Shown here: piece after piece, positions 11,949 to 38,312 of the stretch
How the letters are laid out: the number at the start of each line of letters is the position of its first letter
Position numbering within the stretch: the stretch's first letter is position 1
NCBI GenBank assembly: GCA_048213135.1
Contig: PS015169.1
Location: forward strand, 85,733 to 134,017
From: Reclinomonas americana ATCC 50394
Lineage: Eukaryota
Reading direction: 5' to 3'
Length of the DNA: 48,285 bases
The notes under the pieces: model-generated
What the model saw: only the letters and a program-made list of their open reading frames with translations
The model's database searches: none
Told to the model about the DNA's origin: nothing
Translations under genes and position numbers: made by a program

Positions 11949-14900
11949 TCATTCATCGCCCACCGCCAGCGCCACACGTGCACTGGCGGTCGCGGCCGCA
12001 CGGCCGCCTCGTCGACGGGCATACGATTGCGCCACCTCCTCCTCATCCTCCTCGTCCTCCTGCATCGGTGCATCCTCCACAATGCGGACGGTGCGGTGTC
12101 GCGGTGCTGCGGCAGTTGCCGACGCCTTGCCAGAGACAGTCAGCGCGGCGGCGCCGGGGACCGTGAAGGCGGCCGGATCAATCGTCACGCTCTTGGTCTG
12201 GTTGTGGGTCTTGTAGATGCCGACGAGGCGATCGGCCAGCTCGAACATGTTGTTGCGCAGGGAGATGATGACAAACTGCGCGTTCTTCGTGCGCTGCTTG
12301 ATGTAGTTGGCCACAATGCTGACGTTCTTGAAGTCGAGCGCCGCGTCAATCTCGTCCATCACATACAGCGGCGTCGGCTTGTAGTGATGCAGCGCAAACA
12401 CCAGCGCCAGTGAGCTCAGCGTCTTTTCGCCACCCGACAGGTTGCTAATGTTCTTCCAGCTCTTCTTCGGCGGTCGCACGCTGAACACGATGCCCTCGGA
12501 GAATGGATCCAGGCTGTCGACCAGCTCCAGCTCGGCGTCGCCGCCCTGCGGGAAAAAGGCAAAGGGAAGTGGTGAGGGGAGGAGAAGGAGAAGGAGAAGG
12601 AGAAAGAGAAANNNNNNNNNNNNNNNNNNNNNNNNNNNNNAGAAGGAGAAGGAGAAGGAGAAGGAGAAGGAGAAGGAGAAGGAGAAGGAGAAGGAGAAGG
12701 AGAAGGAGAAGGAGAAGGAGAAGGAGAAGGAGAAGGAGAAGGAGAAAGAGAAGGAGAAGGAGAAGGAGAAAGAGAAAGTGGAGGAGATAGAGAAAGTGGA
12801 GGAGAAAGAGAAGGAGAGTGAGAAAGAGAAGGAGAAGGAGAAAGAGAAAGGAAGAGAAGGGGGAGAGGAGTGGAGGAGAGAAGGGAAGACAAATTAGATT
12901 TGAATAGGGGAGAAAGAGATAAGAAGAACGATAACGGACAGAAGTGGTGGAATGGAAGCCGAAGAGACTGAGGAGATAATAGAAGAAGCCCACAGAGAAA
13001 GAGACAGCCATTTCCTTGCTACTCGCTCTGCTCTTACCACTCGCTCGTTCTCTCCCCTTCTATCCACCTCTTTCCCTTTCCTTTCTCCCTTCCCTTCCCG
13101 TTGCCTCACCAACGTAATCATCTGGTACATCTCCTTCAGCTTCATGGTGATGACCGAGAAGCCGGCCATGAACTCCTCCAGTCGCTGTTTCCTCAGCTCG
13201 TCGAAGCGACGCTGCGACGCATTGCGTCGATCAGTGACCTCATTCAACTCGCCGAGTCGCTCCTGGTAGTCGCGGTCCTTGGCACGGTACTCGGCAATGG
13301 CCGCCAGGTTCGGCTTCAGGTGCCTCAACGACTCGTCCACAATGGCGATCTCGCGCTCCAGCGACGTCTTGTCCAGGCGTTGCAGCTCGCGCTCGGTCAG
13401 CTCGCCAAACGTGTAGCGGCCACGCTGCTTGGGCAGTGGCGGTGGCGGTGCGGCCTTCTGCGAGCGCCTCTGCGGCTGTCGCTGTGCGCCTCGGCCGCGT
13501 CGTCGCTGACGCTGCTTCTGGCTGCTCGGACCCGCACCGTCCTCGTCTTCCACCTCATCCTGTTCCGCCTCTTCCTCTTCTTCCTCCACCTCCTCCCGCT
13601 CCTCCGCCTCGTTCTCCTTGTCTTCGCCCTCGCCGTCTTGCTCGCCCTCGGCGTCCTCGGCGGGCAGGAATTCGGCGATTCTGTGTGATTTCCTAACCAT
13701 GAGCAACCCGTATCGTGGCTGTCGAGTGAAGACGAGCGCACGCAACTCTTGGTTCTGCTCCACCACCTCCAGCAACTGCTTGTCCCAGTGCTTGACGCGT
13801 GAGGCACTCTCCTTGACCACACGGAGCAGGTCGTCCAGCTGATTTTGCACATCGATTTCGGCATCCTTCAGCATGTGCACCTTTTGCTTCAGCCCGCCGT
13901 ACGACGACTGCACGCCGTCCAGCTCCTCCTTTTTCTCGTCCAACAACTGCGCGACACACAATAGCACGTGAGTGAACGCCGAGGGTTCTTATATCCAGAG
14001 CAGTGCTGGGGTCCGACTCACCGCCTGGATCTCCTTGAACTTGTTCATCACAATGAACGCCTGGTCCTCCAGTGCCTTGAACTCCTGCGTCTTCTCCTCC
14101 AGAGTGCGGTCGAGCTCCTCCAACTCAGCCTCCATGCGCACAATGGCTTGCTCCGACTTTTTGGCGTTCTTCTCGCACGTGCGCAGCTGCACCTCGGCCT
14201 TGGCACCCGCACGCTCCGCGTCGTCCAGCTCCTTGGTCAGCGACTCGACCTTGTACTTTTGCGATTGCAGCCGCACGCCGCCCACGTCCGAAATCTGCTT
14301 CTGCAGAGCGTCCACTTGCTGCTGCAGTGCCTGTGCGTCCTCCTCAGCCCCGGCCAACTCGCGCTCGCATTGCTTGATGCGCTTCTCGGCCTCCTTGACT
14401 TGTGCAGCAGTCTCGCGCGACATGACGCACCGCGGCTCAATCTCCTCCAGTTGCTGTTCCAGGTCGGCACGCTGGGCGGTCTTGGACTGCGGAGACGAAG
14501 TAGAGAGTTGTCAGAACGCCTTCAGTTTTCCTCATTCTCTTCTCCCTTTCCGTGTACAAACCTCAAACTCCATGCGAGCCTTGCTGATCACTTGCTCGGC
14601 CTCCTTGGCGTCCCTCTCCAGCTGCGACAGTTGCTGCTCAAGCGCCTCGCGGCGCGCCGTCAGCTCTTGCAGCTGCTGTTGCAGCTCGGCGACCGATGCA
14701 CGAGTGCTCTCGACCTCCTGCTGGGTGACCGTGCCCGCCGAACGGAATCGCGAGCTCATGCCACCACGCGACGGCTTGTCGCCACCGCCACTCATGGTAC
14801 CCGACGTGTCAATGAGTTTGCCGTCCAGGGTGACCACTCGGTGACGACGCTGCTTGTTGTAGGCAATTCGTGTGGCCTGGTCCAAGTCGCGTGCCACCAG

Positions 14901-17900
14901 CGTGTCTTGCAGGGCAAAGTAGAAGGCGGGGCGGAAGATTTCGTCGCGCGGCTCAATTTGATCAAACAGGCTGCGGGAATGGTGGAAGGGTGAATGACAG
15001 AAAGTGATCAACAAGAGATAGAATCGCACACATACCGAGCCACATTCTCCGGCGCCTCGAATGGCTGGCGCATGCGTGCCTCCGCATCGGCAATCTTGTT
15101 CAGCATAATGAAAGTGGCGCGACCGAGATTGCGCTTCCTGCAAATGACAGAGAGTCAGCTCTCACTCATCATCCCCGCTACCCTCTTCCGCTTGGCGCAA
15201 CTTCAAGAATTGAACGCATTTCTGGCCGACCTTGTCATCGGCCACCACAATGTGATCGAGCGCAGAGCACGCGGTCGTCACGGCCACGTCGAGCGAGTCA
15301 TCGATGCGGCCGAGATCGCCCAGGCGGCCGTACACGCCGGGCAACAATCCAGCCTCACACGCCTGCATCAACGAGTCCTTGACTCCGCTGCGCGAGCGGG
15401 CGTTCTGGAAGGTGAATTCCTTGTCCTCCAGCTCGCTGCGCGCTGTGGCCAGCTGCTGTCGCACATGAACCTCTTGCTCGCACACGCGCTGCGGAGGGGC
15501 GAGAGGGGAGAAGGGGTGAGGCCTCCCAAAAAAACTGCAAGGGAGATGTGTGTGGTGCGGACAAACCTCGAATTCGGTCTTCTTGCGTGCCGCCTCCTTC
15601 TCCAGCTGCTTGAGGCGGCGACTGTACTCGTCGATCTCGGCAGAGCACCGCTCAATGGCGTCCACTGCCTCGCCCAGCTGCTGTTGCGTCTGCGTGCGCT
15701 GCGCCACAGCCTGCTCCACTGTCAGTTGCGCCAGATGCAGCGTCTGTCGCGCCAGCTCGACCTCCTTTCGTCGCTCGACAATGATCTCCTGACGCGGCAT
15801 CAGTTGGCGCAAGAGCTCCTCCAGCTGCTTGCGCAACTGCTCGGTCTGCCCGCGCAGCGAGTCCATGATTCGGTCGAGCTCGGGCTTCTCGCGCGCCAGC
15901 TGCCGGCTGAGATTGGCGGTCTGTGCTTGCCGGGCATCGATTTCGCCCGTCAAGTTGGCCGACTGGGCACACCAGCACGTGAAAGATGAGCACACACTGC
16001 CTATCCAAGTTTTTTTTGCCGAACAATCTACAAACCTCCGACTGCAGCTGCACGGCCTTCTTGCGCTCCTTCTCAATGTTGCCCTCGATCTTCTTGCGCT
16101 GCGTCTTGCTGTGCTTGATGTCCTCGCGGAACTTGATGTCCTTGCGCTCGAACGCGGCAAACTCGGCCTTGCTCTCGCCCAGCGACTTCTCCAGCGCCTC
16201 ATACTCGGCCTTGATGCCCCCGTAGTGACCCTGCGCGCCGGCCAACTCCTCGTCGGCGGCCTTGAGCTGCTCGCCAATCTCGGTCTTGCGGTCCTGCACC
16301 GCCTGCATGCGTGCCTCGGCGTCGCCGGCACGCGTCCGGGCCTCGCGGCGCATCACCTGCGCCTGCTTGTGCTGCAGCACCAGCAACTGGTGCTGCTTCA
16401 GCACGTACTGCTCGGCCTCCAGCTTGCCGCTGCGCAGCGAGTCGCACTCGCTCTCCGCCATCTTGACGCGGTTCAGCTTTTGCGTGCGCTCCTCGTTGAG
16501 CTCCTCCACCGCCTTTTCCGCCTCCGCAATGCCCTCTTTCAGGCGGTTGGAGCCGATCAGATCCTCAATGTACTCCAGCAGACCGGTTTCGTGTTCCGTG
16601 GCGCCCTTGGGTTTCATCATGGCGATTTGCTCCACCTGAAATAAGGGAAAGGGATTGAGGAAATAATAGGGGGGATTTAGGGGAAGGGAAAGGGGAAGGA
16701 AAAGAAAAGAGAGAGAGACAGATCCCCTGTTCAGCACTCACCTCGCCCTGCAGAATCAAGAAGCGATTGTGATTCAGATCAATGCCCTTGCCCTTCAGCA
16801 GATCGGCGACCTCATTGCGGGTCGCGCGGTGACCGTTGATGGTGTACACCGATGTGTTGTTGCGCATGGCCTTGCGACCGACGGAGAATTCGGTGCCTGG
16901 CACCGATCGGTACGCCGTGCCGCTGTCGTCGAGGTCGACAATCTCCTCGAAATGCACTACCACCGAGGCCGATTCCAGGTTGGGGTAGGCGTCGGAGTGG
17001 TGAATGAGCTCGGCGACCTTCTTCTGTCGCAGCTCGTGTGCCGGCTTGGTGAACACGAAGAGCATGGCGTCGATGACGTTGGATTTGCCGCTGCCGTTCG
17101 GGCCGACAATGGAGGTGAAGCACTGTGCGGAGGGGGAAGGGCGGTGAGGCAAAAGGGGGAAGGGAGGGGAAGGGAAAGGGAAAGGCAAAGGTGGGTAAGG
17201 AGGGAAAGGAGGGACAGAAGGGGAAGGTAGAGGGGAGAGCAAATCTAGAAACAGGAAAGAGAGTGGTGATAGAGAAAAGAGAAGAGAACAAAGGAATGGG
17301 AAGAGTGAGAGACAGAAGGGAGTGAAAGATAACGTCCACACAGAGGTGGTGACCGTGTGATCAAGGGTTGTTGGAGTTGCGAAGTGGAGATCGTGATGAG
17401 CGAGGCAAAGAGTGAATCAGAAGACACAATCACTTTTCGGTGAGAGAAGTCTCGCGTGTCTTTCTCTCACGCATTCAACCTGCGTGAGTGCAAGGATGCT
17501 CTCGCTGGGACTGCAGAACGAGTGATCTTCTCTCTCATCCTTCACAAGACACACATCCTATGTTCCTCTTTCGCTATCATGTGAGCACACTTCTCGTCTG
17601 AGTCTGTAGTGCGACTGATCTCCCCTCGTTATAAGCTTGTGTGTCCATTCTCAGCGCTGAGAACACTCGAGTAACACATGCTGTTTCTGTTCCCTATAAT
17701 CCTTCCCATTCATTTCTTTCCTCTCTTTCTGTGTTTGTTGTGCGACTGATATGCCCTCTGTCATCAAACACACATAGCTATTGCTCTCCTCTCACTGATA
17801 GCTTGCGCTAGTGTGAGTAATGAGAGACCTCACTTGCTGCCAAACAAAACACGCACACGAAGCACACAATTCTATCTGAATCTGTTGAGAGAGTGATCTC

Positions 17901-18263
17901 CCCTCTCATCTAAAACACACACAGCCGTCGCTCTCCTCTCACAGATAGCTTGCGCTCATGTGAGTAAGGAGAGCCCTCACTAACCCACACGATACACACG
18001 CAGTGCACACAAGATGCGGTGTATGTGTGTGTGTTTCTCTCTCTCAAGGGCGCTCTCTCTCATCTTCATTCCTCTCTCTCTTCCCCTTTCTCCCTCTCCT
18101 CCCCCCTCCCTGCCCCTTCCTCTCTCTCTCTCTCTCCTCTCCTCCCACACACACACACCTGATGAAACGGCCCAATCGTCTGCACACCCGCATACGACTT
18201 GAAGTTCTCCAACACCATCTGCTTGATCATCAACCGCCGCACCTCGCCAGACGCAGACGCCAT
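11949..18263 (-). CDS. SMC4: Structural maintenance of chromosomes protein 4 (condensin subunit), 11 exons
   Basis: N-terminus [42 protein letters not shown] (Walker A), NHNRFLILQGEVEQIAMMKPK, hinge (GVYGRLGDLG; GKLIDTSGTMSGGG), C-terminus SVRPPKKSWKNISNLSGGEKTLSSLALVFALHHYKPTPLYVMDEIDAALD. All ten introns are GT-AG and phase-consistent. Confidence 0.98.
12578..12850. repeat. (GGAGAA)n hexamer repeat in last SMC4 intron
   Basis: Directly visible, with a small gap. Confidence 0.95.
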
Positions 18264-27676: not shown

Positions 27677-30224
27677 ATGGACTCACGGTGAACACGCGCT
27701 CCGGACCTATCCGCGGCTACATGCGCGATGGAGTGCGGCTGTTCTTGGGAGTGCCGTTTGCGCAGCCGCCGGTGGGAGATTTGCGGTGGGCGAACCCGGT
27801 GCGCGAGAATGCGTGGATGTCGGTGAGGGGTGAGTATGACAGCCGGAGGGGGAAGGAAAGGGAGGCAGGAGGAGAAGAGATGAGAAAACAGAGACATCAC
27901 GAGATGGGAGAGGTCATGAGTGGCACGAATGGAGAACGTGAAAAGAGGACCCAAGTGCTGAAAGCAGAGTGCAGCATCGAGGGATCGACAGAAGCAAAGA
28001 AAGAACGAGTGACAGAATGAGACACATTCTGAGCGCGTGCGGCAGAAGCGAGATGAGGCTTAGAGCGCGTGCGGCAGAAGCGAGACGCAGTGGAGGGTTG
28101 CGAGAGGCTGGCACGTTAAGAGTGACGGCAAGTGAGATAATGAGCACGTGCGTGAGCGGCGAGAAACTCGGACTCGGTGCTGAGATAACGAGACTGGGGA
28201 GACTGTTGGAGGAAATGAGCGAGGGAACAGCGCGATTGGGTTTCTGAGTAATACCCACGCAGATGCCACGCAATTCTCGGCCGGTTGCATGCAGGATTGC
28301 GTGCTGCCGCCCAACACTTGCCCCCCGACCGCATCTCCGAGGTATGTGTCTCTCTCTCTCTCTCTCTCTCGCGCGCGCTCTCTCTCTCTCTATGCATGTG
28401 TGTGTGTGTGTCCGTCTGTATGTCCTCTTCTCTCTCTCTCTGTCTGTCTCTCCCTCTGTCTCTCCCTCTGTCTCTCCCTCTGTCTCTCCCTCTGTCTCGC
28501 CCTCTGTCTCCCTCTCTCTGTCTCTCCCTCTGTCTCTCCCTCTGTCTCTCTCGCTCTGTCTCTCTCGCTCTGTCTCTCTCGCTCTGTCTCTCTCGCTCTG
28601 TCTCTCCCGCTCTGTCTCTCTCGCTCTGTCTCTCTCGCTCTGTCTCTCTCGCTCTGTCTCTCTCGCTCNNNNNNNNNNNNNNNNNNNNTCTCCCTTTGTT
28701 TCTCCCTCTGTCTCTCCCTTCCCCTCCCTCTCCCCCCTCTGTCTCCCCCGCTCCCTCCCCACATCTCACACTCCCTTCTCCTTTACCGCCGCCAGGACTG
28801 CCTGTACCTCAACGTGTTCGCCCCGCCCGTCTCGCGCGCCACTCGCCCACTGCCGGTGATGCTCTTCCTGCACGGCGGCCGTTTTGAGCAGGGCGGTGCT
28901 GGCATCTTCCTGTATAGCGGCATGAACATTGCTAACACGACCGACACGATTGTGGTGACCACGAATTATCGTCTCGGAGCGTTCGGATATTTGGGTGAGG
29001 CGGGGGATGCAAAGAGGGAGAAAGAGTGAGAGAGAGAAGCTGAGATGTGGAGAGAGAGGAAAAAAAGGGGATAGATGCCGCGAGAAAGAGTGTGTATGTG
29101 TGAGATTCGGAGAGACTAATTTTTTCTTGAGGCGCACTTAACACGTAGTCGCCATCTCCCACCCTCCATCTCCTTCCCTCCATTTCACCCCTTCGCCACC
29201 CCCCTTCGCTCTCCCCCTTCGCTCTCCCCGTTCGCTCTCCTTCTTCGCTCTCCTTCTTCGCTCTCCCCCACCCCTTCGCTCTCCCCCTTCGCTCTTCCCC
29301 CTTCGCTCTTCCCCCTTCGCTCTTCCCCCTTTGCTCTTCCCCCTTCGCTCTTTCCCCATGCTCGTCCCCCGTTGCTCTTCCCCCTTTGCTCTTCCCCCTT
29401 TGCTCTTCCGCTCTTACCCCTTTGCTCTTACCCCTTCGGTCTTCCCTCCGTCTCACCCGCCATCTCTCCCACCACGCAGTCACCGAGGACCTTGCTGGCG
29501 ACTTTGGCACGGAGGACCAGCGCGAGGCCATGCGGGTGTGGCAGTCTCTTCCCTTGCCCACTTTCCCACTCAACTCCACTCTCGTCTCACGCATCACTCT
29601 TTGTCCGCAGTGGGTCCGCGACAGCATCGCCAACTTTGGCGGCGACCCGAACAACATTACGCTGTTTGGCCAGTCGGCCGGCGGCACCTCGATTGCCGTG
29701 CACATGGCGTCGAACAAGAGCACTGTTTCGTCTCCTTCTCCACTCTCCTCTCTCATAACGTTGTCTCACCGCTGCGGTGCGCTCGCAGGGCCTGTTCCAC
29801 CGCGCCATTATCGAGAGCAACCCGTTCGGCTTGCCGTTCAAGAACGTGAAGGAGAGCGTGCAGTTTGGTGGCGAATTCGCCAAGGTCATTGGCTGCGGCG
29901 ATCGCGATGTGTCCTGCTTGCGCGGCCGCACCCCGGCGCAAGTGGTGACGGCGCAGAAGGAGGCGAAGCACACGGACATTTTCAATGTGTTGTTGTGTGA
30001 GTTTTGGTTGCCGGCTTCATGTTCACTCTTTCGATAGTTTCCCTCGCTGCTATCTTTCTCTCGCTGTGCTCTCTCCCTCTGGCTGTGCTCTCTCGCCTCT
30101 CGCTGTGCTCTCTCGCCTCTCGCTGTGCTCTCTCGCCTCTCGCTGTGCTCTCTCGCCTCTCGCTGTGCTCTCTCCTCTCGCTGTGCTCTCTCCTCTCGCT
30201 GCGCGCGCTCTCTCTCTCGCTGTG

Positions 30225-30269
<45 letters not shown>

Positions 30270-30770
30270 GTCGTCGTCNNNNNNNNNNNNNNNNNNNNNN
30301 NNNNNNNNNNNNNNNNNNNNNNNNNNNNNNNNNNNNNNNNNNNNNNNNNNNNNNNNNNNNNNNNNNNNNNNNNNNNNNNNNNNNNNNNNNNNNNNNNNNN
30401 NNNNNNNNNNNNNNNNNNNNNNNNNNNNNNNNNNNNNNNNNNNNNNNNNNNNNNNNNNNNNNNNNNNNNNNNNNNNNNNNNNNNNNNNNNNNNNNNNNNN
30501 NNNNNNNNNNNNNNNNNNNNNNNNNNNNNNNNNNNNNNNNNNNNNNNNNNNNNNNNNNNNNNNNNNNNNNNNNNNNNNNNNNNNNNNNNNNNNNNNNNNN
30601 NNNNNNNNNNNNNNNNNNNNNNNNNNNNNNNNNNNNNNNNNNNNNNNNNTCCTCCGTCCGTCCGTCGTCGTCGTCTCGTCCTCCTCCGTCCGTCGTCGTC
30701 GTCGTCGTCTCTCCTCTCGTCGTCGTCGTCTCTCTCCTCTCGTCGTCGTCGCTCTCTCTCTCTCGTCGTC

Positions 30771-30841
<71 letters not shown>

Positions 30842-32924
30842 CATTCTCTTCCCTTCGCTGCTCTCTTCCTCTCGCTTCTCACTCCACCGTGTCCTTCCAC
30901 CTCCCTCTCGCACAGCCGTGTACCGATGGGCTCCCACTGTCGGCCACGCTGACGTCCCGGAGCAGCCGCTGGCCCTGTTCATGCGCGGCCACCTGGCCAA
31001 CCCCGTGCCGCTCATGATTGGCACGGTCGCCGAGGAGGGCTTGATGTTTATCCACATGGTCAGTGTGAATCTCATGTCCACGTTCCAGTGATAATTTGCT
31101 GAGTGGATGACAACAGGGTCTGGCCAAGCCGCTGCCATCGGTCGAGTACGACGCCATTCTTGGCCTGATTTTCAACGTCAAGGCCTTTGAGGTCCGCAAC
31201 GAGTACCCAGCGCCGTCGAACACCACCGATTACCGCGGAGTAATGTCCACTGTTGCGTGAGAACGTGTTTTTATGCACTGAAGGCGCTGAGAAGGACTCA
31301 CACTTGTGTGCTCGGCAGATGGGCACTGATTACATTTTCTCGTGCCCGGCTCGTGCCATTCTCAATGCGTTGCGTTGTACATTGTCCGGATTCGGCGCTG
31401 TTGGTGTGTGTGCCTCACGTTTCTTGTCAACAGCTACTTGAAGTACTGGCCCAGCACCCCGGCGTTTGTCTACTTCTTCGACCGCCCGCTGCCGTTCCCG
31501 GGAGTGTGGGTGAGTGTGGTGGGAGAGGGTGAAGGCGAGAGGAGAGAAGAGGAGAAGGTACAGTGCAAAAGATGAGTCGAGGAGCGAGAAACGAAGATGA
31601 GAGTTGGCAAGAATGTTAGGAAAGTGTAACAGATACATCAGTGAGGGAAGAGCACAAGAGAAAAGGTGCACGTGGATAATATGGCTCTATTCTCAACATT
31701 GGTAGCACGATTGTTAACAGTTTTAGTCGTTGAAGGAAGCACACTAGACTTGTTGGCGATCGTTTTAGATGCACATTGTGGTGTTATTGTGTCGAGACAA
31801 GTGAAAGCCTCTCAATCCCTCACCCTCCCCCCTGTGCTCTCCCCCCTGTGCTCTCCCCCCTGTGCTCTCCCCCTTCGCTCTCCCCCTTTGCTCTCCCCCT
31901 TTGCTTCCCCCTTTGCTTCCCCCATTGCTCTCCCCCCCTTGCTCTTCCCCCATTGCTTTCCCCCATTGCTCTCCCCCTTCGCTCTCCCCCCTTTGCTCTC
32001 CCCTCATTGCTCTCCCCCTTTGCTTCCCCCTTTGCTCTCCCCCATTGCTTTCCCCCATTGCTCTCCCCCCTTTGCTCTCCCCTCATTGCTCTCCCCCTTT
32101 TCCCATCCGCCTTCGCTCTCCCCCCATTGCTCTCCCCCAATGCTCTCCGCCCTTGCTCCCCCCTTGCTCTTCCCCTTTCGCTCTTCCCCTCAATGCTCTC
32201 CCCCATTGCTCTCCCCTTCGCTCTCCCCCCTTTGCNNNNNNNNNNNNNNNNNNNNNNNNNNNNNNNNNNNNNNNNNNNNNNNNNNNNNNNNNNNNNNNNN
32301 NNNNNNNNNNNNNNNNNNNNNNNNNNNNNNNNNNNNNNNNNNNNNNNNNNNNNNNNNNNNNNNNNNNNNNNNNNNNNNNNNNNNNNNNNNNNNNNNNNNN
32401 NNNNNNNNNNNNNNNNNNNNNNNNNNNNNNNNNNNNNNNNNNNNNNNNNNNNNNNNNNNNNNNNNNNNNNNNNNNNNNNNNNNNNNNNNNNNNNNNNNNN
32501 NNNNNNNNNNNNNNNNNNNNNNNNCCTCCCCCACTTGCCCTCCCCCCTTTGCTCTCCCCCATCCCCTTCCCCCCTTCTCACCCCTTCCCCCTTACAGGGC
32601 CCCGACTACTCCTACTGCGACGGCCACGCCTGCCACGGCTCCGAGCTGGCATTCGTGTTCGATAGCCCCAAGCCGGCGATGAACCTGCAGTTCCCGTCCG
32701 ACGATCAGCACGTGTCGGACAGCATTGCCAGCTACTTTGCGGCGTTTGCCGACAATGTGAAGCCCGATCCGAATCCCGCCACCTCGCGCCTCTCCTACTG
32801 GCCGGCGTGGGAGTCGCAGAAGCAGCTGTCTATGGGCTTCGACTGGCCGTTGCAGGTGCAGTCGGGACGCAACAGCGACAAGTGTGATTTCTGGGACAAG
32901 GTCGGGTATGAGACGGGGGTGTGA
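27677..32924 (+). CDS. Type-B carboxylesterase/cholinesterase family protein (5' exon missing; one apparent frameshift)
   Basis: FLGVPFAQPPVGDLRW, SEDCLYLNVF, oxyanion loop HGGRF, NYRLGAFGYL, WVRDSIANFGGDPNNITLFGQSAGG (nucleophile Ser), GTVAEEG (Glu), CHGSEL (His). Stop at 32922-32924. The frame breaks at the C6 run 28321-28326. Confidence 0.93.
28425..32235. repeat. Several pyrimidine-rich 12-18-nt minisatellites in carboxylesterase introns
   Basis: CTCTGTCTCTCC/CTCTGTCTCTCTCG units at about 28440-28668, CCCTTCGCTCTCC-type at about 29200-29440, TCGCTGTGCTCTCTCGCC at about 30060-30230, TTGCTCTCCCCC-type at about 31830-32235. Confidence 0.9.
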
Positions 32925-33459
32925 GCGGAGGAAGAGGAGGAGGTAGGGGAAGAGAGGAGAATGAATTCGGCGAGGTGAGGTCGGAGTGGGCGGGGATGGA
33001 AGGGCGAGAAAGAGGAAAGTTAAATAGAAGGACGAAGAGACCGATAGAGAGATAGAGAGAGCGAGAGGTTGAACGAGAGCGGGGCAGAGAGAGAAGCAAT
33101 TTGTTGGGTTGAGTAAGCTGCAACAGAGTACGGGCTGCCTTGCGCTGCGCGCAAGTCGCTGTCCCGGGGTCCACACTATGCATCGTGATGCACTGAGCCG
33201 TGATGAAGAGGGTGAGAAATGGAGAACTAAGGCGGCTTCAACCGCATAGTCCACAAGTTTCATCGTTTGTCCAACGCTGCAAGGGTTTCATGCAAACTGT
33301 TGATGAGGCAGAAATGGCGCGATCGCGAGAAGCGCAACAGTTTTCCAGTCGTGCACCACTTTTCATGATATGATCACTCTTTACGCGATGGACGATGGGT
33401 TTCACAGTTTCAAGAGCTGCTGAAATCGAGGAAATTTCATCTTTCTTTGTATTGCAACC

Positions 33460-36400
33460 ATGCGACAGCGCATTGTCGCTCTTCTCCTGCTCTGCATTGT
33501 GTTTGCCCATGTGCTGCTCTCCATTGTGCATGCGGTTGCCGCGGTGGTCAGTGCATGCGCTGTTAGCAGTGCTTCTTTGCAAATGCCTCACTCTTTACGT
33601 GCGTGCATGCACGCAGGATGTCACTGACAACGACGATGATGATGATGATGTTGATGATGATGACGACGACGAGGATGACGATGTCGATGATGTTGGCGAA
33701 GAGCAAAAGCATGAATCACCCCCACCGCCACCACCACCCCCGCCCCCGCCTCCTCAGTCATCTCGCTTGACATCTGCTCTCGTTATTGCGGGTTTGTTGT
33801 ATTAGCACATGTATTTAGCAGCGTCCCCCACCTGAAGTCACTCGCTGTGAGCAGCTGGACACATGAGTGACACGTTGCGAGTGTCATTGGATGCTATCGC
33901 CGCACTCGGCAACACACTGGCTACCTCCAAGCTCTTCAGCGGTGACAAGTTGGTCTCTGACGAGTCGGACGTGTTTCCAGTGGTCGTGGTCGCGGGCTTG
34001 CAGAGCTCGGTGAGCCTCTCTCGAACTTATTGCCGACTGCACCAGCGCATTGACATTTGGCGTGCGCGTACAGGGGAAGTCCTCGCTTCTGGAGCTTCTC
34101 AGTGGCGTCGCTGCTTTTCCCACTGATGTGGGCTTTTGCACCAAGTCACCAATCATTTTTCGCTATGTGCCCGTGGAGGCAAGCGACAGCTCTGTTGGCG
34201 TGCCGCCAAAATCAGCTGTTGTGACGTTGAAGTTACCCGGACGGGCAGAGCCAGTGTCGCATGTGGTGAACATGTATGATGATGATCATGTACAACAGAC
34301 TTTTAGGTGTGTTAACAAAGAGGAGAAGCGCGTGGGAGAGCAGGCATTCTAAATTGCAGAGATAGTCAGTGGATATTTTGCAAGTGTGATGAGAGAAAGA
34401 CCGTGCAGCGGCCTTTGTGTCCTCGCCGCTAATCACGCTCTCTGGTGTACACTTTCTTCTCACTTTTTCCGCTTCCTCTTACAGGAAGATCCAGGAGCGC
34501 ATCGTCAAATTCTACGACTCCATTGGCGACGGCTTGACAGAAGATACGGTCGTCATCAGTGTTCGAGCTCCAGGCCTCCTGCCGTTTATGTTTGTCGATC
34601 TGCCAGGCATGACCGCCGTTGCGTGCTCCTGTGCGAGGCCTCTTGTGTGCGTCCACTTGTGTACCGATGTGTGCCGTTCTTGCAGATTGGTGCACGTCGG
34701 GCCACATCCGAGAGTATAACCAGAAAGTACGCTACTCGCAAGAGTACGGTAGTGCTTGCTGTGCACCCGGCAAACCAGCACCTGGAGAACGATTTCAGTC
34801 TCGGCACGTTTACGATGCAGGAGCATGCAAATACGTGCGTCGAGTGCGCGCATGTGCTTCCGAAATTTCTCTCTCTCTCTCTCCCTCCTTACCCATCTTT
34901 GTACTTGAATCTCATCTCCACTACGTCCACTCCCTCAGCATCACCATCGCCTTCACCAAGATGGACCTGGTCACTAACATGAACGAGATTGACGAGAACC
35001 TGCTGCGGCCGGCACTGACGAAGAACATCACGGCAGAGAACCCTGCAATCGCGTTCGTTCGAGGTCGTACTGTGGAACAGGGCGACCTTTCGCCGCAACA
35101 GCTCCTTGTGAGTGAGAGCAAGTATTTTGCAAAAGCAGGTCCGCAGGTCGCTCGACTGAAGCACTTTGACCGCAACCGCGTTGTATTTGGGACACCGTCG
35201 CTGGTACTTCGCGTCGCCAAGGTAACCACCTTGTCGGGTTGTGCTGTTTCCATTATCTACGGCAGAGTGCTCAGTCGTTCCCCTCAGGCATTTGTTCACA
35301 AATTTGCTGAACACACAATTCCGATGCTGCGCGAGCTGATTAACAAGCGTGCCAAGGAAGTGGATACTGCCCTTCGCAACTGCATTTTCGGAGATAAGGA
35401 CAGTTTCATTGTCGAGGCTAGCAAGTTGCCTCAGTTGCGAGTTCTACTGGTGGACATCGCTGCGCGAGGCGATCACGCGAAGCTGTTGGTCAACTTGGCC
35501 AGCGGCGTGTTCCAGGCCGACTTTCGCCAAGCAGTTCTTCGCGGGTCCGTCCGTGATGCCGTCATCTCGTCCGTGGAACAATTTCGAAGCAGTGCTGGCT
35601 CGTTTGCCGAATTCCAGGAGCGATGTGATCGCGCTGTCAATGCTGTTGACGAAGCGATCCGCCGAGCGCTGGAACAGACGTATGCAAAGCACAAGGCGGT
35701 ACGTGTACTGTGCGGCTGCTGGATGAAATACAGTCTCTACTTGGTGCACTCACAGTCGTATGCTGCTTGTGCAGGCATATGGTACAGTCCTGCCGTATTT
35801 ATATATCTGTTGTTCTTGTCGGCTGCTGACTCCGGAACCGTCTCGTCGAATTTTACAGACCGCATCGTTGGCTTCCGACATGCGATCACAGAACTGATAT
35901 CTGCGAAAGCGATTCCTCCTTTGCACGCAAAAGTCAAGGCTGCGGTCCCGCCAGTGTTGCAACGGCTGCAGGCATTTGCGGAAGCCTACAACGTACGTCA
36001 CTTTTCGTTGCTGCGAAACGCGGTAGATCTCTTCTAATTGGCGGTGTCCAAATAGGTGCCGTTTGTGCACCCTCGGGATCCACAGCACCCGTATGACGCC
36101 AAGTTCATGTGGACACTGCAAGTCAGTGTGGTGGTGTTCAGCAAAATCCACGAATTGCTGATAAATGCTGTCAAGGACGATATTGACAGTGTCCGTCTCT
36201 GGAAGACTGCACCGCTGGTTCGTGGTCAGCAATAGAAGTTTTCTGCATTGGTAAGTATGTGGAACTGACGTTTTTGTGAACAGGCTGCGAATGCTGCCTT
36301 GCCAGCCGGTGTGCTGTCCAGTTCGTATGTTGAGCTGTTACAGACACGATTCAACATTCACGCGCTCCAGCACCATGTGGAGGCCGTCAATAGGGCGTCG

Positions 36401-36673
36401 TTACCTGTCCTTTCGTCGCTGATGGTCAACGAGCAGCTGCCACCGCTGAATAAGGATGGTCAGGTTCCCGGGGGGAAGGCTTGGCCCCCTTCGGCAGATG
36501 TTCTCCACGGCGGCGATAGCAAGAATCTTGCCCCCCTACCCTTCGTTCCAGTCAATGTTACTGAGGTAGTCCATGACCCACAGTATGTAGCCGTGAGTGC
36601 ACACGCGGCGGCTGCGGAGGAGAAAATTGGTGAGGAGGATAACGGGTGGTGCCTTTTTGGATTGTTGTGTTAA
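33460..36673 (+). CDS. Dynamin-superfamily (Mx/DRP-like) large GTPase with predicted N-terminal signal peptide, poly-Asp and poly-Pro tracts; 768-aa model
   Basis: Exons 33460-33534, 33617-33791, 33855-34009, 34074-34306, 34485-34617, 34686-34834, 34939-35221, 35288-35698, 35775-35781, 35859-35992, 36056-36217, 36284-36673 (2307 nt, all GT-AG). G1 VVVAGLQSSGKSSLLE, G2 GFCTKSP, G3 FVDLPG, G4 FTKMD, then a helical stalk-like region. The GTPase call is firm; the 5' and 3' exons are less certain. Confidence 0.85.
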
Positions 36674-36877: not shown

Positions 36878-37591
36878 TCACAGCTCGTCACCATTACAAT
36901 CACGGAGAGCGCCATGCTCGAGAAAGAGACTCATGAGTTGCACATTTTCCAACTCGCGAACCCACTGCACGACATCGACATCATGCATATTTTTTCGACA
37001 TAATTGATCCGCCGGCCACACCGCAAGCAACAAACGAACACTATCGAAGTCCATGTTTCTGACGGCCCACATGAGTGCACTGTCGCCGTTGTTGTTGAGT
37101 TGCGTTATGTGTTGCACAGGAAGTCGCTTGATCAACTCTTCGAGCGCCGGCACTGCCGAGTACCGCGCCGCCAGCAGAGCCAAGTTGCTGCCGCTGCTGT
37201 CGACCTGCAGTAGCTCCAGCGGTGGAGTCGCTCTAACCAAAGCCACCGCCGCATTGCGACGACCATGTCTGAGCGCCAGCTGCACCGCAGTGCGGCCCTC
37301 GTAGTCTGTGAGTGACAGCGTCTCCGTCGCCCCTTCCGCCGCTAACAACTGACGAAGTGTCCGCACGCGGCCACTGGTGGCAGCCTGCATGACAGGAGTG
37401 CGCCCGCCATCGTCACGAGTATAAAACCAAGCGCGCTTTGGCGTTCGAAGCAGCGCGAACAAACTGTCCTTGCCGCGCTCCACAGAAGTCGTCAACAGCT
37501 CGGCGTTCGCGGAATTTGCTGCTGCGCTGTCGAAGCTTACGGATCCGAAGTCCACATCGGAGCCATGATCATCAGAGCCGGCCGGCGCCAT
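36878..37591 (-). CDS. Ankyrin-repeat protein (about 5 repeats), uninterrupted 237-aa ORF
   Basis: GRTPVMQAATSGRVRTLRQLL, GRTAVQLALRHGRRNAAVALV, GSNLALLAARYSAVPALEELI, GDSALMWAVRNMDFDSVRLLL. The frame is open further upstream to 37843, so the start is uncertain. Confidence 0.85.
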   Translation of the reverse strand: MAPAGSDDHGSDVDFGSVSFDSAAANSANAELLTTSVERGKDSLFALLRTPKRAWFYTRDDGGRTPVMQAATSGRVRTLRQLLAAEGATETLSLTDYEGRTAVQLALRHGRRNAAVALVRATPPLELLQVDSSGSNLALLAARYSAVPALEELIKRLPVQHITQLNNNGDSALMWAVRNMDFDSVRLLLAVWPADQLCRKNMHDVDVVQWVRELENVQLMSLFLEHGALRDCNGDEL

Positions 37592-37876
37592 GGAAATCAA
37601 GGGTCTCGTTTGCGATGACCAGCACTGCAGAAGAGCGACACTGACGGACAAGGAGTTGGCGAGAGACGAAAAGAGGCAAGGGCATTTCACGGAACTCAGG
37701 GAAAGAGTCAAAAACATGTACACTAATGCGGAGGAGAAGGAGAGAAAAATGCAGAAAGTCGGACCCGGGGACCAGAAAGAAAGGGCAAGAGGTCGGAAGT
37801 GAGCAGTGTGCAAGTGTGAAAGTGGGACACAACAGATCAGCATGACTGCATGAGATGCAGAAATGCGAGTCGCTAT

Positions 37877-37911
<35 letters not shown>

Positions 37912-38312
37912 GTCTGTCTCTGTCTCTGATCTCTCTTTTTCAGTGTGTCTGCGCGCATGTGTGTCACCAGCACAGTCTCATATTCATGCTGCACAATTGC
38001 AAACAGTCACCTCCATGCGCTGCACACTGTCACACTGCACTCTCTCGCACGCGCACACGTTTGCACGCCCCAATTCGCATAGCCCACAACCACACGCGGA
38101 CACCACAAACCTGCAGAACCCAAAAACGAAACAAAACACAGCAATTGCGATGTTTCTGCACACTTCCCGAAGCCTGACTACGCGACCCATGACGACTGGA
38201 CTCGTCGATTCTGTCTCTTCTGTCTGTCTTCTGGGGTCTTGCAGCAGGTGGTGGGACGTCATTCATTGGCCTATTTCTCCGAAGTTGTCCTTTTGCTTGT
38301 CGCAAGGGAGCA

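Follow-up and report, generated by a model that had tools for sequence, protein, structure and literature searches.

A divergent dynamin-type GTPase gene in Reclinomonas americana and the signal-peptide-like reading frame upstream of its probable start

Proteins of the dynamin superfamily are understood as machines that act in the cytosol or on the matrix side of organelles, and their G domains are defined by the motif GxxxxGK[ST] (the G1 P-loop), a threonine in switch I, DxxG (G3) and [TN]KxD (G4). In OPA1/Mgm1, a dynamin-type GTPase, a long basic mitochondrial presequence and a membrane anchor precede the G domain. Here, a stretch of 48,285 nucleotides (nt) from Reclinomonas americana ATCC 50394 was analysed (GenBank assembly GCA_048213135.1, contig PS015169.1, positions 85,733 to 134,017 of the forward strand), which is referred to as the window and whose own numbering is used for all coordinates. 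It carries a gene for a dynamin-type GTPase at 33863-36673, preceded at 33460-33805 by a reading frame with a signal-peptide-like start and tracts of aspartate and proline, and a first-pass annotation of this DNA had spliced the two into a GTPase that would enter the secretory pathway. Our analysis favours a GTPase that begins at ATG 33863 and is probably cytosolic, a reading that covers both non-coding DNA and a small separate gene upstream and to which we give a probability of about 0.6; this figure, like the ranking of this start ahead of the fused secretory form, is a judgement from rough likelihoods, combined with a low prior expectation that a dynamin carries a signal peptide, and not a computed value, and what neither of these two readings takes goes to other possibilities.

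In the diatom Phaeodactylum tricornutum, the protein sDrp (Drp5B/ARC5 group) has been described as having a bipartite leader composed of a signal peptide and a transit-peptide-like part, and its green fluorescent protein (GFP) fusion as periplastidal (PMC3101018). Since that leader starts with an endoplasmic reticulum (ER)-type signal peptide, an ER route for a dynamin has precedent, and the premise of the first-pass annotation, which knew of no characterised dynamin with an ER signal peptide, does not hold. For Gnbp, a Dictyostelium GBP homologue, a signal peptide is predicted at the N-terminus and a transmembrane domain at the C-terminus (PMC8565484), and highly divergent dynamin-like proteins of unknown role have been noted in Bigelowiella (PMC4641359). 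A search of the full-text literature, supplements excluded, did not bring up any account of a dynamin that is secreted or acts in the lumen.

Family and structure of the GTPase gene

The GTPase gene is a multi-exon gene on the + strand, situated between a carboxylesterase-family gene (+) and an ankyrin-repeat gene (-), and was modelled with scripts that enumerate all GT-AG pairs which leave the frame open. From ATG 33863 the spliced protein has 681 residues encoded by nine exons, numbered here as exons 3 to 11 to follow the two exons proposed upstream; the eight intervening GT-AG introns measure 63-178 nt (63-68 nt in five of the eight), and their removal restores one continuous frame. In this spliced translation, G1 (GLQSSGKS), the switch-I Thr, G3 (DLPG) and G4 (TKMD) occur in canonical order, as the first-pass annotation had read them. 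The P-loop conforms to GxxxxGK[ST] and straddles a junction, where exon 3 (33855..34009), which contains ATG 33863, ends within it (GLQSS), and exon 4 (34074..34306) supplies what remains of G1 (GKSS) together with switch I, including its Thr, and the next strand region. Exon 5 (34485..34617), drawn from the splice model and without a family match on its own, terminates with G3, exon 6 (34686..34834) covers the interval between G3 and G4, and exon 7 (34939..35221), which alone matches nothing in Pfam or PDB, holds G4 and the first of two sequons (NIT).

Profile and homologue queries were contiguous translations of the window, that is, single exons or read-throughs, and three lines of evidence from them agree with the dynamin-family assignment proposed earlier. 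Exon 4 matches the Pfam profile Dynamin_N (PF00350) at profile positions 10-45 with E 5.7e-6 and 26.9 bits, just under the gathering cut-off of 27, and exon 6 shows a weak match to the same profile (E 0.08, 13.4 bits, positions 119-145) that is colinear with that of exon 4. Among solved PDB chains, exon 4 has its best phmmer match in Mx1 (E 0.0065), in an alignment that covers the P-loop (GKSS) and the switch-I Thr, with Mx2 and Drp1 weaker; exon 6 has no PDB match. The protein-atlas features of exon 4 lead to three top-ranked clusters that are all Dynamin_N, the best at 0.92 with 170 shared features, and to 22 hits for the family set. Of the further profiles that the first-pass annotation had named beside PF00350, neither Dynamin_M (PF01031) nor GED (PF02212) gave a Pfam match on any exon at E <= 1, and PH gave none either, in an exon-by-exon scan, which has lower sensitivity; this is in keeping with its statement that a PH domain and a clear GED are lacking.

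The region after the G domain spans about 400 residues and is probably helical. It includes exon 8 (35288..35702), for which a single-sequence AlphaFold2 model is all-helical with a mean predicted local distance difference test (pLDDT) score of 41.6, a value that makes it unreliable. Exon 9 (35859..35992) follows from the splice model, as does exon 10 (36056..36217), whose 3' boundary is placed by a modelled intron at 36218-36283 that takes out in-frame stops, the first of them, at 36233-36235, being where the open frame would otherwise end. Exon 11 (36284..36673) contains the second sequon (NVT), ends at the stop codon TAA 36671-36673 and encodes the short hydrophobic C-terminal end that had been reported before. 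The two sequons were likewise correctly noted at first pass, and since composition alone would give 2.8 of them, their number is uninformative either way.

Two junctions of the model allow other solutions. The 3' boundary of exon 8 is uncertain, and the exon 8/9 junction (35699-35858) is ambiguous, as a consensus donor GTACGT at 35699 fits only a 57-nt intron ending at 35755, which would retain a strongly hydrophobic insert of 34 codons (35756-35857); the chosen model uses the donor at 35703 and a 156-nt intron. At the exon 10/11 junction, a strong GTAAGT near 36252 is unusable in frame, and the model takes the 66-nt intron 36218-36283 with its weaker donor GTTCGT, so an alternative C-terminus exists in which the protein stops at 36235. 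Frame B is open for 474 codons across part of this region (34613-36034).

A read-through of exons 7-9 (351 residues, taking in G4 and the beginning of the helical region) was searched with HMMER against 1.84 billion cluster representatives and found no true relative. Its sole hit, a 716-residue protein (P0001), was rejected as a tandem-repeat artefact, in which a 35-residue stretch (14/35 identical) matches successive repeats. P0001 is built of units of about 78 residues and has a signal-peptide-like start of its own, and its match to exon 8 consists of one short stretch that recurs many times, which illustrates how repeats inflate a whole-sequence E-value. A word-based search with exons 7-8 and exon 4 among longer proteins gave no relative, and two metagenome scans, one viral scan and one scan of prokaryote genomes gave no relative. 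Exons 3, 6, 7 and 7-8 yielded no dynamin-kind match among solved chains, and no Rfam family reached its gathering score.

Taken on these motifs and matches, 33863-36673 is very probably a real gene of a dynamin-type GTPase, and to judge from its sequence the protein is a divergent member of the dynamin superfamily and not a classical dynamin, Drp1 or Mx. It is a solid conclusion that this GTPase is lineage-specific and fast-evolving, and that its post-G-domain part is, as far as searched, without recognisable relatives.

The start codon and the chance of an upstream link

In the favoured reading, translation would start at ATG 33863, and the signal-peptide-like poly-Asp/poly-Pro open reading frame (ORF) would not be part of the GTPase. 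This Met comes directly after a stop of the unspliced frame, a genomic TGA four codons upstream, and precedes the first predicted helix by a few residues, roughly where Drp1, Vps1 and dynamin start; both features speak against a fusion with the upstream frame. Between 33460 and 33862 there are 21 ATGs, a single one of which (33809) falls within the last 57 nt. With so many ATGs, a leader that spans 33460-33800 and yet initiates at 33863 is implausible, and the load leaves three options, namely a transcription start near 33863, an upstream ORF that is translated and fused, or a separate, closely abutting gene. Within the favoured reading, it is a tentative proposal, held at somewhat less than even odds, that 33460-33805 is non-coding promoter or leader DNA consisting largely of triplet repeats. 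Tandem Repeats Finder (TRF) finds (GAT)19.3 at 33635-33692 and (CACCCC)5.2 at 33717-33747, which make up most of the proposed exon 2.

With either start, the GTPase would bind and hydrolyse GTP through its orthodox G1-G4 set, its G domains would pair, and the post-G region of about 400 residues, probably helical, would drive assembly, by analogy with the family as a whole, in which assembly stimulates GTP hydrolysis and membranes are remodelled. By the same analogy, the short form may remodel or sever a membrane from the cytosolic side, and because a PH domain is lacking, recruitment by some adaptor or lipid contact is proposed.

The secretory claim rests on the use of two introns, 33535-33616 and 33792-33854, and the junction 33791/33855 is decisive. 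The first-pass annotation was right that 33792-33854 is, as a sequence pattern, a phase-matched 63-nt GT-AG intron that preserves the frame into exon 3, and the question is how often such a link arises by chance. Within 33300-33862 (563 nt), there are 619 distinct in-frame paths from an ATG to the GTPase with at most two GT-AG introns of 40-250 nt. When this upstream region was shuffled with dinucleotides preserved, at least one in-frame path was present in 250 of 300 shuffles, and a path with a signal-peptide-like start in 66 of 300, where signal-peptide-like denotes, throughout, a crude rule of our own and not a prediction of the SignalP type. With exon 2 held fixed and 33758-33862 shuffled, 1039 of 2000 sequences offered a GT-AG link of 60-70 nt that was in frame and free of stops, and 1690 of 2000 did so when lengths of 45-120 nt were allowed. 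In the real sequence, donor 33792 alone provides a link of 60-70 nt between exons 2 and 3, with an intron of 60 or 63 nt. Because exons 2 and 3 share one genomic frame, an intron need only have a length divisible by three and remove the three stops between them. The exon 2-exon 3 link is at chance level, and the fused chain carries no statistical weight.

The setting makes such paths easy to find. The window is draft sequence (GC 52%, 4009 N) rich in CT-, CA- and GA-rich simple repeats, and TRF returned 113 tandem-repeat rows for it, most of them with periods not divisible by three (2, 4, 7, 10, 13, 14, 16, 23); with such repeats long spurious ORFs are common, and 139 ORFs of at least 150 codons occur in the window. 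The trap is a general one, in that where introns are short and repeats many, an upstream ORF will as a rule have some splice path that keeps the frame.

Rival readings of the upstream DNA

The rival that survives best is one secretory protein of 767 residues, in which an N-terminal extension of 86 residues from ATG 33460 is fused to the GTPase; we regard it as possible and rather unlikely. Proposed exon 1 (33460..33534) consists of ATG and 24 further codons and encodes, as had been claimed, a hydrophobic peptide of 25 residues, with two Arg followed by a hydrophobic stretch that ends in V-H-A, followed by GT at 33535 and an AG that ends at 33616. Cleavable ER signal peptides have a basic n-region, a hydrophobic h-region and small residues at -3 and -1. 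The present peptide resembles either such a signal peptide or an uncleaved signal anchor, the latter because its core of about 19 hydrophobic residues exceeds the usual length in signal peptides. V-x-A occurs both at residues 23-25 and at residues 14-16. Kyte-Doolittle windows of 19 residues with a mean of at least 1.6 start only at residues 1-11 of the 767-residue model (spanning residues 1-29). After proposed intron 1 (33535..33616; 82 nt, GTTGCC...CAG), exon 2 (33617..33791) would add an Asp-rich, (GAT)n-like tract, a short mixed stretch, 12 Pro encoded by CCN codons and then QSSRLTSALVIA. The Asp-rich tract and the in-frame splice described at first pass are there, and the count of prolines is 12 where 11 had been given. 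Proposed intron 2 (33792..33854; GTTTGT...CAG) contains three in-frame stops, and unspliced the frame ends at TAG 33803-33805, from which ATG 33863 is separated by 57 nt, as the earlier alternative had it.

In the fused form, a luminal or secreted dynamin-type GTPase would be preceded by an acidic tract, which may bind Ca, and by a rigid linker of poly-Pro. The 61 residues past the hydrophobic segment include 19 Asp and 4 Glu and have a net charge of -21, so that by the positive-inside rule, with positive charge before the core, the remaining chain would be luminal or extracellular. That the locus encodes a lineage-specific dynamin-type GTPase facing the lumen or the outside by way of an ER signal peptide or anchor, for membrane remodelling or defence, is a doubtful proposal, and a variant of it has two transcription starts, giving a long secretory isoform and a short cytosolic one from ATG 33863. 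If true, a luminal or secreted member would raise questions on nucleotide supply and substrate membrane; a GTP-driven luminal enzyme has no known supply of nucleotide and no known substrate, which counts against the fusion.

Several observations weigh against a start at 33863 and in favour of translated DNA upstream. ATG 33460 has A at -3 and lies 12 codons past an in-frame stop. Codon log-odds were computed from 1834 codons of the GTPase gene and the neighbouring SMC4 gene, with 2024 nt of intron and spacer sequence as the background; in 75-nt windows, coding sequence has a mean of 0.48 (standard deviation, SD, 0.33) and non-coding sequence a best-of-three mean of -0.28 (SD 0.52). Exon 1 scores 0.21 in its own frame and -0.76 and -1.05 in the remaining frames; negative values were obtained for the two proposed introns in every frame and for the ORFs on the minus strand of this DNA. 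The donor and acceptor motifs and the lengths of the two proposed introns (82 and 63 nt) resemble those of the eight downstream introns, and intron 1 has CTCAC 26 nt before its 3' end, an instance of the branch-like motif CTNAY that is found 15-29 nt before the 3' end in 5 of the 8 downstream introns vs 841 of 6573 AG sites overall. All nine non-C bases of the Pro tract, and nine of the 13 departures from GAT in the Asp tract, fall at codon position 3, a variation that suggests translation in this frame and equally fits the opposite strand or repeat slippage. A transcript starting ahead of 33460 would carry 20 ATGs before 33863, which disfavours an untranslated leader; the favoured reading would need transcription to begin no more than about 150 nt from 33863, or no more than 53 nt if the leader is to be free of ATGs. 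A start near 33863 leaves about 940 nt from the carboxylesterase stop (near 32921) to the start codon, whereas the convergent stops on the far side of the GTPase gene are about 205 nt apart. For the fused form in particular, the gap of 57 nt between stop and ATG is very short for two genes, and signal peptides on dynamin-superfamily proteins have precedents (PMC3101018; PMC8565484).

The evidence on the other side concerns mainly exon 2 and the decisive second intron. Exon 1 leans towards coding; exon 2 is uninformative, with a codon score of 0.10 in frame vs 0.01 and -1.68 in the other frames, no better than non-coding windows (mean -0.15, SD 0.52), and its third-position GC (0.40) is far lower than that of the main coding sequence (0.62). 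Two triplet tandem repeats make up most of exon 2, and simple repeats occur all over the window. Intron 2 has no CTNAY motif, in-frame links are usual in shuffled sequence, as set out above, and no relative of the protein or of the locus was found in the collections searched. Signal-peptide-like starts are uncommon in the window, where 6 of the 650 ORFs that begin with ATG and have 30 codons or more pass the crude rule. Two of those six lie at this locus in two frames, from ATG 33460 and from ATG 33530, and overlapping ORFs of this kind in different frames indicate that the local composition readily gives hydrophobic frames.

The second of these ORFs bears on a further rival, which is nested in the favoured reading and which we consider improbable, namely that the upstream ORF is a small separate gene. 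Its product would be a secreted or surface peptide in which a signal peptide is followed by the acidic tract, by Ser-(Pro)12 and by a short hydrophobic tail up to TAG 33803, with 110 residues if translated from ATG 33460 with intron 1 spliced, or 91 residues if translated unspliced from ATG 33530. From ATG 33530, in the frame of exon 2 (frame B), the sequence is open to 33802 across proposed intron 1 and through the Asp and Pro tracts, so that this 91-codon ORF needs no splicing. The coding hints for exons 1 and 2 and for intron 1 serve this case equally well, intron 2 is weaker than intron 1, the GTPase retains its own start codon, and Ser-(Pro)n behind a signal peptide is reminiscent of secreted proteins rich in hydroxyproline. 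The GTPase gene would then begin 57 nt downstream, with a promoter within or overlapping the small gene. Against this, 57 nt leaves too little room for the 3' end of one gene and the promoter and leader of the next, except where transcripts overlap or are polycistronic, and leaky scanning to 33863 past so many ATGs is implausible. The product would be nearly all low-complexity, and the peptide encoded at 33460-33805 has no family match at E <= 0.01 or at E <= 1.

A reading of the repeat tracts on the minus strand, as poly-Gly/poly-Ser, is compatible with the position-3 variation noted above and was rejected on codon scores of -0.81 and below.

Neighbouring genes and comparison with described systems

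Upstream of the GTPase gene, a carboxylesterase-family gene occupies about 27685-32921 (+), with Pfam COesterase matched in four ORF pieces over profile positions 4 to 515; it is broken by long CT-rich repeat introns and by N gaps, which in this window often adjoin tandem repeats, and it ends about 540 nt before ATG 33460. Downstream, an ankyrin-repeat gene at 36881-37939 (-; Ank_2, E 1.4e-14) is convergent with the GTPase gene, and (AC)15 and (AG)9 repeats lie between the two stops. Farther away, tblastn traces an SMC4 (condensin) gene in at least eight pieces over 12174-18236 (-). Over its C-terminal 122 residues, identity to the SMC4 of molluscs, Capsaspora and a brown alga is 95-98%, and over the remainder about 27-77%; for full-length SMC4s, tblastn gives about 36-58% identity to the window.

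Compared with the systems introduced at the outset, the GTPase and its proposed extension show likeness to each in part. Like OPA1/Mgm1, the fused form would have an N-terminal targeting extension and an anchor ahead of the G domain, but only two Arg stand here before the hydrophobic core, and an extremely acidic tract follows it. Gnbp likewise has a dynamin-superfamily G domain preceded by a signal peptide, which is only predicted in both; it belongs to the GBP branch and not to dynamin/Mx, and has a predicted C-terminal transmembrane domain, whereas the present model has no hydrophobic 19-residue window beyond residues 1-29. With sDrp, the fused form would share an ER-type signal-peptide start on a dynamin-related protein. 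Transit peptides are basic, hydroxylated and poor in acidic residues. The tract after the present core is extremely acidic (net charge -21), unlike such peptides, and the present leader therefore does not look bipartite.

The GTPase itself is best set beside dynamin, Drp1 and Mx. It differs from these in having no match to Dynamin_M, GED or PH and in an exon 4 score that stays just under the Pfam cut-off. It is like them in a P-loop and switch I that align to Mx1, Mx2 and Drp1, in the DLPG and TKMD that follow, in a long post-G region and in its overall size of about 680 residues.

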